Shown here one piece after another: positions 3,872 to 62,823 of a stretch of 64,000 nt of DNA. Under the pieces are notes generated by a model. That model was not told the DNA's origin, searched no databases, and saw only the letters and a list, made by a program, of their open reading frames with translations. This DNA is from Octopus vulgaris. Taxonomy: Eukaryota. Location of the stretch: assembly GCA_951406725.2 (NCBI GenBank), contig OX597821.1, positions 65,596,001-65,660,000 of the forward strand, given 5' to 3'. How positions within the stretch are numbered: the stretch's first letter is position 1; the number at the start of each line of letters is the position of its first letter. Made by a program: the position numbers and the translations under genes.

Positions 3872-4230
3872 GTAGGTCCCGGGTTGATTCGGGGTTAACC
3901 ACAGTAAATAAGGTACTCAATACATAGCAGAGTAAAATTAATTTATTATATAGAAGGAGCTTCTACAGGACTAGAACTGTTTCATTCAAGAGAAATCTTC
4001 AGGAAGCTAGTTAACAAGAATTGTATTGGCATTTATACATTTAGGCAGGTTTAAAGGGGTGGTGGTGGGGGACTTTTTGGGGGTAGGCATAGCGCAAAAA
4101 TATCATACTTGGGGGAGTGGTCAAGGAGTCAGTGGTAAATTAGATAGAAGAATAAATAAAAGAATAAAAAAGGGAGAATAAAAAAATATATAGAGGAATA
4201 GAGTTTTAGGTAAATAAGGAAAATCTCACT
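3872..4230 (-). mobile_element. Penelope-like terminal-repeat fragment carrying a hammerhead, inserted in (TA)n
   Basis: 3872-4008 is nearly identical to 11685-11820 and has the same boundary (GTAGGTCCCGGG) next to (TA)n; contains an HHR. The right boundary is approximate. Confidence 0.6.
3958..4008 (-). ncRNA. Type I hammerhead ribozyme
   Basis: Minus strand reads AGCTTC-CTGAAGA-TTTC(TCTT)GAAT-GAA-ACAG(TTCTAGTC)CTGT-A^GAAGCT. Stem I is a perfect 6 bp, the core is canonical and the cleavage triplet is GUA. Confidence 0.85.
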
Positions 4231-5800
4231 TATACCTATACACATATGTATACATATATACACACACACACACACATATGCATACTCACATACATACACA
4301 CACACCCATATATATATATATATATATATATACACACGCACATACATATACATACATATATCTACACACACATACGCATATACATATATATATATATATA
4401 TATATATATATATATATATATATCTATATATACATACACATATACATGCACATACATATACACACACACATGTATATATGCACACACACACACGACCACA
4501 CATACACACACATATATATCCACATACACACATGCACACACAACACACAAGTCCCTATATACTCATATGTACTTATACACATATATGTATATATACATAT
4601 ATATATATATATACATATATATATATACACATACATATGTGTACCTATTCATACCTACACATACACACATATACACATACAAATACAAACCCATTCCCTA
4701 ATTTTAATTTTATTATCTTCATTTATTACTTTTGTTATCTTTGACCGCTGGTCACAAACATCTTGGCTACGACAACCAGTCCCTTTTATCTTTCTACTTG
4801 AGCACAAGCACTCACTCACGCACGCACACTCGTTAGCACGCACACTCACTCATTCGTACACTCATACACATACACGCACGCACGCGTTATATTCATACAT
4901 ACATACATCTACATACATACACGTATATACACATACGTACGCGTACCTACAGATTCATGTCTACAATCTTAGAAGACTAGTCTATACATATACACCAATA
5001 AATATATATACACACATACATATACACCTACATACAAATACATACATACATCATAACTCTACGTACCTACATATACCTAAACACACGAGCGTACACGTAT
5101 ATGTACTTATACACATACACATACCCACGCATATATACATACATACACATACATACACGCACATATACACAAATATATATGTATATATATATATATACAC
5201 ATACACATATATACACATATATATATATATACATATATATACACATATATACATATACACGCATACACACATATATACATACATATACATACACACACAT
5301 ACACATACACACACACATATATATATATATATATATATATATATACATATATACATATATATATATATATATATATATACACACATACACATATATATAC
5401 ATACACACACATACACATACATATACATATACACACATACACACACACACATACATATATACACACACACACACATACATATACATACACACATACATAC
5501 ACACATATATATACACATACATACATACATACACACATATATATATATATATATATATATATACATATACATGTGTGCAATAATACATACATACCCATAC
5601 ACACTCACACACTTACATATACATATATACACACACCTAAACACACATATATATATATATATATATATATATATATACATATATACATATACATATATAT
5701 ATATACATATATATATATATATATACATATACATATATACACACATATATATATATATATATATATATATATATATATATATATATATATTTGGCTTATA

Positions 5801-6251
5801 TTTATTTGCTGCCGATAAATTTGGCGCGAGTGCGACGATTTGAAAATTTTAGGTCAGATATTGCCGAGGTAGCAAGAGGAATGCCTCGTGAAAAATATCT
5901 GTTCCGACTTGGCTATTTCTTACTGATGAGTCTAAGGGCCTATGGTGGATTGGCTTGATTTAATTTAATCAGGTTAGTTTACCATTAAACGGTAGATGAA
6001 ACGGTGCATCGTCTAAGAAATTACAGGGTAAAAGTTTTTCAATTTTCTCCTGGTTTACGGAATTAATGTTATTTTGCGGTTAAAGCTTTTGGCTGTTATT
6101 TCTAGTGGGTGAATGGCCTATTATGGCCGTTCCTTGATTGTGAAGTTGAACGTAAAAATGGTTTATGACTATTTAATTTTTTTCCTACTAGGCCGCTGGT
6201 GGCAAAAGAATTCTACAAAATTTTTTTTGCCACCCTATATTGATTAATTAT
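5801..6251 (+). mobile_element. 484-bp HHR element (retrozyme-like), copy 1, about 0.93 unit, in (TA)n
   Basis: About 99% identical to the copies at 60121-61177 (3 substitutions and 1 poly-T indel seen); flanked by (TA)n. Confidence 0.85.
5915..6021 (+). ncRNA. Type I hammerhead ribozyme with extended stem II
   Basis: ATTTCTTA-CTGATGA-GTCTA..[19-bp hairpin]..TAGAT-GAA-ACGGTGCATCGT-C^TAAGAAAT; 8-bp stem I, GUC triplet. Confidence 0.9.
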
Positions 6252-6268
6252 ATATATATATATATATA

Positions 6269-7806
6269 CTAGCAGAATTGCGCGGCGTTGCTCGGGGCTG
6301 AATTGCTTGAAAGTACTGTTAATGATTGCACTGAATTATGATGATTATTCAGGCAAATATTGATATAAGTTTACGGTGGGAGATAAGGACTTAACGATCA
6401 AACGTGTGCCATTGCATTGTTTTGGGGGAACCAAATATCTGATGAGCATTATAGGGGCACCAACTTTAAGTTTGAGAAAGTGTGGTGGTAGTCCGGGGTG
6501 CTCAAAGGAATTGAGTACCTCTATTGGATAGTTGATGACGTCCTCTGGGTCAGGAGTTGTATCGATAGACTGATATACATAGATTTCCCCAGGAATGAGT
6601 TTTAGCATTTCATCATTAATATGGTGAACAGTTTTATTCCTCGGGGCCAGAATAGCCCTTTGGCCAATCCAATCCATATTCTGATAATTAGCTTGTAGAT
6701 CTGGGAACACTGCATCTCTGAGATCAGAAGGCGTCTTAACAAAGGTACAAATGGAATCGATGGCAATATTACCAGTTTCATCCCCTGGTATTTTGCCTTC
6801 GCAAAGTGCAAGGAGGGTGTGAGGAAATTTTTAAGAAAGGAATTTGTTTACATACATGTGTGAAATGGCAAATGTTTGTGCAGTTGTCCGAAATGGAACC
6901 AGGGTAAATGTGTGGAACTGATGTATAATAATGAAGGCCTTCTTGTTGTGAATATTAATTTGATTAATATGAACTAAAAACCAGTGGTGTAGCAAAAAGG
7001 ATGACCAGTCTGACTGGCTCATCCCTGTCACACACTCACACACACGCACACACACACACACACACACACGCACCCTTACACACACACACGCACACACACT
7101 CACACACACACACTCACACACACGCACACACACACACACATTAGCTTACAATTTTATTTATATATTTGCGTGTCTATGTGTGTAAAGAGGAAGTGGGAGT
7201 AATATGCAGAGTAAAGGCTTTGAAGTGAAAAGGTAGTTTTCTCGAATTTTTTCTGAAATGGGGGTGAAATTGAAAGAACTTTTGTATGTTATGACCGAAT
7301 GGAAGTACTTTGAAAAATCATAGGTAAACTCTAATTGAAGAAATTGTATGAGGAGTAAATCGTTATGTATTTATTTGTTTCTGTTTGCTGTGTTTTTTTT
7401 TAGTAGTGGTTTAAGGTACACTTGCAAAGAGAAAGAATGTGAAATTATGGTGATAGCATGAGTGATCCGTTTTATATAAATACTTTCACTTTAATCGTTG
7501 CACACTTGCAAAGAGAAAGGAGGAGAAATTAGGGTGATAGCGTGAGTGAAGCAGATCGCTCCGTTTTTGTGTGTGTGTGTGTGTGCTGTAGCCCACACTA
7601 AGAAAAGCACTTCACTTACACACCACAATGTGAGTTTTCTCGAAATTTTGCTTAATTGGGGTTGAAATTTTAAAAACTGGACCTGGCACGACCTGATGTA
7701 TTCTACCCTTAAAAATGCTAGGTAAATTGTAATTGAAGAAATCCTATATTGTAGATTTCTATAAGAGATAAAGGGAGGCAGATAAAATCTGCCTTTTGTA
7801 ATAAGA
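6269..7806 (-). mobile_element. Internally deleted Helitron
   Basis: Minus strand starts TC (7806-7805) and ends ..GAGCAACGCCGCGCAATTCTGCTAG (6269); sits between host A and T; carries a helicase remnant. Confidence 0.85.
6345..6830 (-). pseudogene. PIF1-family helicase fragment of Helitron RepHel
   Basis: RAILAPRNKTVHHIN..YQSID..YPIEVLNS..GLPPHFLKLKVGAPIMLIRYL.P..CNGTRLIV is a classic Helitron helicase C-terminal region; truncated and frameshifted. Confidence 0.9.
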
Positions 7807-61177: not shown

Positions 61178-62311
61178 ATATATATATATATATATATAAA
61201 TGGCGGTGCCCCAGCATGGCCACAGCTCATGAGCTGAAACTAGAATCAATCAATCATATATATATATATATATATATATATATAAATACATAAATACATA
61301 TATGATTATTTATATATGTATGTGTATATATATATATGTATATATTGTCTCCTATTTTTTCTTTTATCATATGTAAATATACGTATATATATACATACAT
61401 ATATATATATATATACATATACATATGCATATATATATATATATATATATATATGTATATATATATATGCATTTATGTATATATGTATGTATGTATGTAT
61501 GCATGTATGTATGTATGTATACATGTGTGTGTATATATATATATATATATATATATATATATGTGTGTGTATGTCCGCTCACACACACACACCTGCCACC
61601 ATGCCTTAGGTAGTGACCTAAAAAAGTAATTTGTAATTAACTGAGTAATCACTAATTCTAATTACTTGAGATTATAACCTTAAGGAGAAAACAACATCTC
61701 ATTAGCGTTAATGAAAATTATTTACAGAAAGGGTAAGGGAGGGAAATCTCGATATTTCAATCAAAGCAATTATTAGAAATATACAAAGATGTGTATGATT
61801 CTAATATTTTGATTTTGTTACCATGGGAACCATTCCGGATATGTTTTGATTGTATCGGTCTTCAACAGTTAAGCTTAGATCACCCAATAGCTACCAAGAT
61901 CTTATTTTTATTTTCTTTTTTATTTATATTTTTAAAATTCTATTTCATCCTTTATGTTTTATCTTTTTTTTACTTGATTCAGTCATTGGACTATGACCAT
62001 GCTGCAGCACCGCCTTGAACTGTTTTCTGGCGGAATAAGTCGAGTCCAGTATTTCTTTTTAAAACTTAGCTAGTGTTAGATGGTTGTAAACTGACCAACA
62101 CCGGTTGTCAAACATTGGCGGGAGACGTATCGGCCGCACGTATCCAATGTATGTGTTTCCCATGTTCGATGACTTTCAAGTGTTTTAATCCCTGGTGTAA
62201 TGAGGGAGTTGTCCCCAGCACGCTGTCTAGCGGCGAACAGGCTAACAAGGAACGCACATACATTGAGTACGTGCGTTCGATAATATTTACAACACTACCA
62301 CTGCTTTTAAC

Positions 62312-62362
62312 TCCTACTGATGAGGCTACGGATGTACCCGAAACTGACCCGTCAATATAGGG
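62312..62362 (+). ncRNA. Type I hammerhead ribozyme, slightly decayed
   Basis: TCCTA-CTGATGA-GGCTAC(GGAT)GTACCC-GAA-ACTGAC(CC)GTCAAT-A^TAGGG; one mismatch each in stems II and III. Confidence 0.75.
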
Positions 62363-62665
62363 AATTCTCGATCGGTGCTTTTGGCCGATTATAGCCCCTA
62401 TCAGTACATATGTATGCAATAATGTACTTTAATTACAGCACTGGAGCATTTAACTCTTATTTCTAGCAATGTAGGTGTTCTAACACTCTAGTCACATTTA
62501 GTGACAATTACAGATTTCCTTTTTGATAAAACATTGCACACAGCTCTCCTCTCTTTCTCTCCCTCTACCCTCTCTCTCTCTCTCTCTCTCTCTCATATAT
62601 ATATATATATATATATATATATATATCATCATCATCATCATATATATATATATATATATATAAGC

Positions 62666-62823
62666 TATTAATAAAATAGGAGATGCAATGTGTAATAGGC
62701 TTTTTTGGGTACAACACACGTTTCGACTTTTTATTGATGTACCCAAAGAGACCCAGAACAGGGCGAAACATGTGTTGCACCCAATAAAATCTATTACGCA
62801 TTCCATCTCCTATTTTATCAATA
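62666..62823. repeat. 60-bp inverted repeat with a hammerhead remnant in the spacer
   Basis: Arms are 62666-62725 and 62764-62823, both starting at CGAAAC; the spacer has CCAAAGA-GACCC..GGGC. Confidence 0.75.

Follow-up and report, generated by a model that had tools for sequence, protein, structure and literature searches.

In metazoan Penelope-like elements (PLEs), minimal hammerhead ribozymes of type I topology lie in the pseudo-long terminal repeats (pLTRs); they have a palindromic or missing helix III, may carry an extra nucleotide after A9 or a U3-A8 core, and form many families per genome, mostly as solo copies and also as opposite-strand pairs separated by a few hundred bases (Cervera and de la Pena 2014, PMC4209133). 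Hydra-clade PLEs combine a canonical hammerhead with (TA)n targets and with tandem and inverted insertions (Craig et al. 2021, PMC8557442), and these two sources together already cover PLE-repeat hammerheads and the diversity of their families, as well as opposite-strand pairs, inverted insertions, tails and (TA)n targets. Animal non-LTR retrozymes consist of tandemly repeated, non-coding units, each a few hundred bases long and bearing a single type I hammerhead; they are scattered across the chromosomes of genomes with active PLEs (PMC7229834; Li, Clavereau and Pollet 2026, bioRxiv 10.64898/2026.07.22.740005), and the machinery that mobilises them has been stated to be open (PMC7761336). In vitro, an anole Poseidon PLE, predicted to act as a dimer, cleaves and extends both strands of AT-rich targets and primes at two internal sites that bound a genomic tail, a property called unique to PLEs (Frangieh et al. 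2024, PMC11167929). Recent PLE activity has been reported in Octopus vulgaris, in an article whose available text leaves ribozymes unmentioned (PMC13282606). Here we analyse a 64,000-nucleotide stretch of this genome (the window; contig OX597821.1, positions 65,596,001 to 65,660,000, from an assembly of 2.8 Gb in 227 contigs). Its 14 hammerhead motifs are pieces of 11 dispersed repeat families, and they are very probably type I hammerheads at the 3' ends of PLEs or of repeats driven by PLEs.

The 14 sites had been listed in a sequence-only reading of the window, and every one of them was found at its coordinates. The core and all three helices are intact at five (three in family A and two in family B) and decayed at the other nine. 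Six had been called canonical or near-canonical; five of these are the intact ones, while the sixth (62312) has an intact core with mismatched helices II and III and fails both of our descriptors. The features are listed below, with positions in the family A monomer counted from the predicted cleavage site; the long and short sites are the two ends of family B arms described further on.

3872..5790, minus strand: family B, apparently the 5'-truncated 3' part of a Hydra-clade PLE, with an intact hammerhead at 3958-4008 (minus) and its 3' end at the long site
4144-5790, minus strand: microsatellite-like 3' untranslated region (UTR) of family B (3872..5790 is 91.8% identical to locus L171 over ~2 kb)
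5792..6251, plus strand: putative family A retrozyme, a single arm of 0.94 unit with its 3' end at monomer position 236
5915-6021, plus strand: intact family A hammerhead with a 68-nt helix II region, predicted to cleave after 6013
9263..9310, plus strand: family D hammerhead with a U4C core (CCGAUGA) and a palindromic helix III; this copy has a decayed helix II
11685..11865, no single strand: miniature head-to-head insertion of family B; the minus arm has the long-site end and an intact hammerhead at 11770-11820 (minus), the plus arm the short-site end and a deletion in the motif
18918..19110, plus strand: family E element with a minimal hammerhead at 18989-19023 (plus), which has a U4C core, an extra A after A9 and a two-nucleotide loop 3; C3 lost in this copy
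32455..32500, plus strand: family F, old; core canonical in relatives, helices decayed here
34227..34279, minus strand: decayed family G hammerhead, GAAA box and UH changed
41337..41805, no single strand: family H head-to-head insertion with a U3-A8 core motif at 41603-41634 (plus), helix II deleted, and a half motif in the minus arm near 41503-41530
49372..49438, minus strand: family I hammerhead with a U3-A8 core, a long helix II and a short, partly decayed helix I
54526..54563, minus strand: family J minimal hammerhead, whose core is A6U (CUGUNGA); this copy is mutated at position 16.2
60116..61177, no single strand: family A head-to-head insertion containing a 438-nt perfect inverted repeat; minus arm of 1.10 units ending at 236, with an intact hammerhead at 60343-60449 (minus); plus arm of 1.07 units ending at 132, with an intact hammerhead at 60947-61053 (plus)
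62312..62543, plus strand: family C element with a hammerhead at 62312-62362, core intact, helices II and III decayed
62666..62910, no single strand: family K head-to-head insertion with a decayed hammerhead at 62739-62780 (plus) and a half motif at 62689-62728 (minus)

By searching the genome with each of the 11 distinct sites and scoring up to 40 candidates per site, we obtained first-look candidates that are not to be read as copy numbers (A 1851, B 1282, C 352, D 1948, E 2555, F 19, G 1222, H 2332, I 1380, J 2285 and K 530). Loci fetched from outside the window carry L-numbers (e.g. L171, L195). In alignments of the 8-11 top relatives, a complete hammerhead is visible in every family. Thus each of the nine non-intact sites, whose variant motifs the earlier reading had left to be compared with family consensus sequences, has dispersed relatives with a complete hammerhead, and the window copies bear lesions relative to their own families. 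Best-match identity is ~100% for A and B, 95% for E, 85-94% for D, G, H, I, J and K, and 71-85% for C and F. The earlier claim of at least eight distinct families was right in that there are many; we found 11, of which E (18989) and J (54526) cluster together, leaving about ten unrelated groups.

The core differs between families: it is mostly canonical in C, F, G and K, U4C in D and E, U3-A8 in H and I, and A6U in J, and the type I order CUGANGA, GAAA, UH is intact in the five intact window copies and at 62312. We tried ten loop-3 segments (F not included): each is a perfect or near palindrome and is predicted in silico to homodimerise, with weak pairing in E/J, G and H. In the J-type motifs of all fetched loci, position 6 is U in 23 of 23, positions 3, 4, 5, 8 and 9 are almost fixed, and position 7 takes all four bases. 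Because position 6 is fixed while position 7 varies freely, the A6U of J seems to be a variant core under constraint and not a product of decay. Slow hammerhead cores with A6C or U4C have been described (PMC3088659, PMC7151607), and our literature search found no natural A6U core. In the 800-kb genome sample described below, E and J make up 20 of the 31 family-profile matches.

Two families can be tied to PLE open reading frames (ORFs) at loci elsewhere in the genome. First, 150 scored loci were retrieved with a GIY-YIG remnant that precedes the G copy in L083. Of the 20 ORF loci fetched (L117-L136), 15 have a Hydra-type GIY-YIG ORF followed by a same-strand G hammerhead, mostly at a distance of ~300 bp. 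Second, a PLE ORF lies upstream of B in 4 of 20 hammerhead-selected loci, and a protein search with B gave open frames of 689-722 aa. A pLTR-ORF-pLTR tandem is found in L195 and L196, with a unit of ~4.8 kb in L195, where the 722-aa frame has no Pfam match and reads in translation as reverse transcriptase (RT) motifs followed by a C-terminal endonuclease. The B protein is 38-39% identical to P0002 and, when its translation is compared with section 11 of PMC8557442, has the RW(R/K), DKT, CxCX5C, CxxC and CxH motifs and no CCHH, with RWR in B and RWK in the related family L142/L143. Along with these motifs, B shares with Hydra-clade PLEs the canonical hammerhead, the insertion into (TA)n, the tandem and inverted copies and the tail. 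Together these data indicate from sequence that B and G are 3' ends of Hydra-clade PLEs; a Neptune-like identity of both was considered and set aside after the motif comparison.

The Hydra clade as published is, in the sections available, a small set of families generally <3 kb long with PLE tails usually of 30-40 nt, whereas the octopus clade is abundant and young and B is ~5 kb long with a tail of 69 nt (PMC8557442). This tail separates the two fixed end sites of B arms, and 14 of the 17 opposite-arm pairs combine a long with a short end (the ambiguous L166 was left out). For the nine other families, no ORF link was seen within the flanks examined; they are likely PLEs or non-coding PLE passengers. 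The window itself contains no Penelope RT, as had been stated: tblastn with Hydra-type and Neptune-type ORFs returned no PLE coding sequence. Two further PLEs were met elsewhere. One is a very young Neptune-type element (L313-L320) with an upstream frame of ~446 aa and an RT/endonuclease frame of 784 aa; it has many equal-scoring 791-aa frames, a 4.4-kb tandem period, a U3-A8 hammerhead, a ~35-nt tail, trinucleotide tracts in its 3' UTR and an insertion anatomy like the two-site ends of family A. The other is a Hydra-type family (L137-L143) that has a pLTR at each end and a U4C hammerhead, and whose 3' UTRs vary in length, gaining TG/TA-rich sequence.

The motifs had been described as short islands within microsatellites, which does not hold for 4144-5790, since this stretch belongs to the B element itself. 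The window copy 3872-5790 can be aligned with other B copies over its whole length. Used alone, the tract 4144-5790 gave alignments of 1,600 columns or more with 11 of 20 B loci (1,306-2,446 bits, against 684 bits for the best of 60 control sequences), with 88-91% identity in L171, L174 and L182; alignments at 77-82% may be inflated by low complexity. In seven ORF-bearing copies the 3' UTR of B measures 2.3-3.1 kb, which accounts for the length of the element, and is 71-79% masked by Tandem Repeats Finder (TRF). B therefore carries microsatellite-like DNA as its own 3' UTR, and the simple repeat is partly cargo and not only target. Snake LINEs also spread simple repeats at their 3' side, but there a short repeat sits at the 3' tail of CR1-L3 and Rex elements (Pasquesi et al. 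2018, PMC6050309), whereas octopus B has kilobases of TG/TA/TATG in a PLE 3' UTR, upstream of the ribozyme. Such cargo is one possible source of the simple-repeat richness of this genome; TRF masks 17% of the genome sample (and 29% of the window). The proposal of repeated waves of hammerhead-bearing retroelements in simple repeats agrees with best-match identities running from ~100% down to 71-85%, with the PLE ORFs tied to B and G and with 3' ends that run into (TA)n; it needs amending in that part of the simple repeat was brought by the elements.

Family A appears from its sequence to be a young retrozyme of the non-LTR type, that is a non-coding tandem of 490-nt units with one type I hammerhead per unit and no LTR structure. 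Its top copies, found on six contigs, share a 251-nt stretch at 100% identity. We compared 30 arms from 18 insertions, two of them in the window and the other 16 at fetched loci; the arms reach 6.2 units and their 5' ends are scattered. By contrast with these, the 3' ends fall at monomer positions 128-141 in 15 arms, at 233-236 in 14 and at 169 in one; 24 of the 30 ends, counted by eye, directly enter (AT)n. In 11 of 12 two-armed head-to-head insertions each arm has one of the two sites, which are ~105 nt apart. Variants private to a locus are common to its units and to both arms in L152, L154, L159, L163 and the window insertion 60116-61177, and hence both arms share one template lineage; some homopolymer differences among A units may be assembly errors. 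A subfamily, A2 (L164:3864-7479 and L139:1-2000), has a 485-nt period, arms of up to 7.4 units and 88.5% identity to A1; it keeps the core, and both partners have changed at pairs in helices I, II and III. The A monomer was also covered by contigs from four runs that were guessed to be RNA, with the end-start join in two of the four; as tandem DNA gives the same result, we did not use this as evidence.

An unrelated second retrozyme array came from blind sampling (L203:2097-4768, or C1:20002097-20004768). It is young and has a 359-nt unit with a compact canonical-core hammerhead; its two arms, placed head to head in (TA)n, measure 1.8 and 5.6 units and end at 181 and 228. In the window, the 5' end of B abuts the 5' end of an A arm at a (TA)n tract (5790-5792). 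A chimeric B-A insertion was considered at 5790/5792, and none of the 16 other A loci has B beside an arm; either A inserted into the (TA)n tract of B, or A and B were joined in one event.

Family A resembles the known animal non-LTR retrozymes, from which it differs by its 490-nt unit, its extended helix II, its head-to-head arrays and its ~105-nt two-site tail (PMC7229834, bioRxiv 10.64898/2026.07.22.740005). In their available parts, these retrozyme papers base the PLE link on co-occurrence and on the similarity of pLTRs, and make no use of insertion ends. The two-site ends of A match the tail-bounding priming sites of the anole Poseidon PLE; that element is autonomous, whereas the octopus signature stands on non-coding tandem repeats with its two sites split between two arms (PMC11167929). 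This suggests that the ends of A are a PLE tail, and the anatomy would then directly support the mobilisation of retrozymes by PLEs. Since A and the L203 array carry this PLE-specific tail and the same genome contains young long-frame PLEs (the Hydra-type B and the Neptune-type element), the question of retrozyme mobilisation becomes accessible to tests on purified proteins. The division of the two priming sites between arms further limits the possible ways of completing a PLE insertion.

These observations are consistent with a model in which PLEs and their passengers likely inserted into (TA)n tracts in waves and were mostly left as 5'-truncated stubs. A dimer of the PLE protein would cut both strands of AT-rich DNA, reverse transcription would be primed at two internal RNA sites, and the two cDNAs would join at their 5' ends to give a head-to-head insertion, with A using the PLE machinery in trans. 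As the ribozyme lies just inside the priming sites, the shortest insertion would still keep it, and the density of hammerheads would follow. The ribozymes themselves likely act as dimers on the tandem transcripts of the elements, and most solo genomic copies would be inert.

We then asked how dense intact hammerheads are in the genome, using a family-agnostic descriptor on 80 arbitrary blocks of 10 kb each (L203-L282; 800 kb in total, at round coordinates on contigs C1-C30). We found 39 intact motifs in 23 of the 80 blocks, compared to 0-2 in ten shuffles and none in reversed sequence of the same blocks. A block bootstrap (22-59 motifs) gives ~135,000 motifs genome-wide (77,000-207,000), or ~49 per Mb; seven of the 39 come from one array, and the descriptor misses some real families, such as the Neptune-type motif, whose helices count below the score cut-off. 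At least five intact motifs per 64 kb occurred in ~20% of the resamplings, so the window is ordinary for intact motifs: the high density noticed earlier is real, but it is a genome-wide property, typical of the octopus genome, and not one special to the window. The family profiles recognise 17 full or half motifs in the 64-kb window, compared to 19 in the first 400 kb of the sample and 31 in 800 kb at a higher cut-off; as the profiles were chosen from the window, these counts cannot rank it. Copy-number estimates from the flanks of repeat-selected loci were dropped as biased. The 39 sampled motifs form 18 sequence clusters, 15 of them confined to one block, which implies that many more families exist. 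In 14 of the 39, the helix II region (A9 to G12) is 30-80 nt long, a class that short descriptors would miss.

Published counts rest on other descriptors and are not like for like with our estimate: ~2,000 and 1,300 in Schistosoma, 4,000 in coelacanth and 9,000 in Xenopus (PMC4209133), >6,000 in Acropora, ~5,000 in Mytilus and 126,247 in axolotl (PMC7229834), whose genome measures 28.21 Gb (bioRxiv 10.64898/2026.07.22.740005). With that caveat, the octopus differs from the PLE hammerheads of PMC4209133, as far as that source is available, by its ~135,000 motifs against 2,000-9,000 per genome, by its long helix II class and by its abundant fixed-A6U family. Rfam at gathering score gave no match across the window, and in low-stringency local scans no hammerhead was among the matches at 3958, 62312 and L203; the low-stringency scan of the whole window was dominated by microsatellite matches to miRNA models (among the 150 of 412 matches listed). 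The load would imply that Rfam-based annotation greatly undercounts cephalopod ribozymes, for example the 235 hammerhead matches of the giant squid (PMC6962438).

Our most complete picture would be that of ~100,000 intact Rfam-invisible type I hammerheads in dozens of families, denser than any published animal count we found, with retrozymes amplifying now via circular RNA copied by a Penelope dimer that primes at two sites, one per arm, with a U6 core in the commonest short family and with a young Hydra-clade element as a major seeder of microsatellites. We propose it tentatively, at somewhat less than even confidence in the whole. Relative to the literature found, its new parts are the octopus load, the microsatellite cargo and the tail on retrozymes, of which our search returned no account, most subscription papers being outside its coverage.

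One alternative, that repetitive, AT-rich DNA has produced the variant motifs by chance, could draw on the relaxed descriptor scores, which do match shuffled sequence, and on two type I descriptor matches with a U3-A8 core and no family link, at 26171 (+) and 33335-33428 (+), which were left uncounted and may be chance. With no core mismatch allowed, the first descriptor nevertheless matched the window six times (the five intact hammerheads and the unverified 33335), compared to a mean of 0.2 and a maximum of 2 in 30 island-wise dinucleotide shuffles, and the second also six times (the five intact and the unverified 26171), compared to 0.025 in 40 shuffles. The shuffle comparison that the sequence-only reading had set thus places the real window far above its controls, and reversed sequence is likewise near zero. 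Above all, each of the 14 sites has dispersed relatives with a full motif, and these family alignments rule out a chance origin for the 14, so that we regard it as negligible for the variant motifs. An early descriptor version that required pairing at 10.1-11.1 failed to detect family B. Type III descriptor matches at 2084 and 2559 could be tied to no family and were not counted. For family A, the satellite scenario (discussed in bioRxiv 10.64898/2026.07.22.740005) would have a solo pLTR inserted once per locus and amplified by unequal crossover with no RNA step. The near-identity and the shared private variants of units within a locus could also come from such homogenisation. Yet the arrays on at least seven contigs are 98-99.7% identical to one monomer, the arm lengths are non-integer, the 5' ends are scattered, two different fixed end sites lie in (TA)n, and private variants are common to opposite arms, all of which make satellites a very unlikely account of A.

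A mobilisation of A by PLEs from uncleaved linear multimers, with the hammerhead as a passenger and no circle, has more in its favour. In vitro, insertion by the anole PLE is unaffected by mutating the hammerhead (PMC11167929), and of nine Xenopus retrozyme dimers a single one cleaved (bioRxiv 10.64898/2026.07.22.740005). In predicted folds, helix III is absent from the A monomer and from the B hammerhead at 3958, forms in part at 11770 and is formed in A2. Several of our own results weigh against a strict monomer circle or against the PLE-driven picture more broadly. In L151 the same 10-T expansion occupies the second unit from the 3' end in both arms, which is what a linear multimer would give, and in L162 one variant is present in a single unit per arm, at different ranks. 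No match longer than ~30 nt links A to any PLE tested, and ORFs are linked to only two of the 11 families; the flanks of C, D, E, F, H, I, J and K, examined over 1.5 kb, contain few ORF remnants, which are on the other strand or belong to a neighbouring element, with the exception of one same-strand remnant upstream of I in L099. The long end of B coincides with the end of the query with which the first 20 B loci were selected, and end pairs depart from the rule in 3 of 17 cases in B and 1 of 12 in A. As for density, the sample halves differ strongly (30 motifs in the first 40 blocks and 9 in the second 40), and the descriptor was tuned after the families of the window had been seen. Against linear multimers, a private variant fixed in every unit of a locus requires a passage through a single monomer at some stage, the double-sided helix changes between A1 and A2 point to selection on the fold, and the retrozymes of coral, mussel and axolotl make circles (PMC7229834). 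Linear multimers therefore seem to us unlikely, though a real contender, and we lean slightly towards a circular template for A; in broader terms, its template was likely a ribozyme-processed circle or a uniform multimer.

The earlier suggestion that intact copies inside a pre-mRNA could cleave it belongs to a wider reading in which these copies matter to the host, by cutting pre-mRNAs or as co-opted regulators. The octopus genome has large introns, and ~10^5 intact-looking motifs would then place many inside transcripts. Retrozymes are also depleted from Xenopus introns (bioRxiv 10.64898/2026.07.22.740005). On the other side, none of the 124 frames of the window has a host-gene Pfam match, although short exons could be missed (two frames have Pfam matches, both of transposon type), and 9 of the 14 local copies are decayed. 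Published PLE hammerheads are weak, dimer-dependent or protein-assisted: single minimal motifs gave no cleavage (PMC4209133), and cleavage by the anole motif required the PLE protein (PMC11167929). Moreover, all ribozyme helices are predicted at probability 0.0 in read-through RNA, on either strand across 60116-61177 and on the minus strand across 11685-11865, because the arms pair with each other. With no host exon recognised, the predicted misfolding and these published requirements, pre-mRNA cleavage by the window copies is not supported by our predictions, and we see little chance of a host role. Head-to-head insertions would instead give long double-stranded RNA in read-through transcripts, which is of interest in a lineage known for heavy A-to-I editing.

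The window also contains other repeats. A general repeat search was dominated by microsatellites, apart from inverted repeats; two imperfect ones, at 27299-27474 and 58866-58969, have no recognised hammerhead. A Helitron-type Pif1 helicase fragment (6345-6830, minus strand) directly follows the A arm, a DUF4817 helix-turn-helix fragment lies at 59594-59803, and LINE-like RT fragments, which we take to be of RTE/CR1 type, lie at 7976-8446, 14367-15620 and 24578-24949. Beside a 1.1-kb (CAT)n tract (21795-22953), a decayed frame (20902-21396, minus strand) presumably resembles the C-terminal zinc finger and restriction-like endonuclease of R4/Dong LINEs, with a weak Pfam hint only. Finally, a two-part SINE-like family, 75-86% identical and split by microsatellites, has ~13 copies (1511-1964, 8308-8435, 10668-11090 and about ten more), and 27906-28087 matches 63317-63492.

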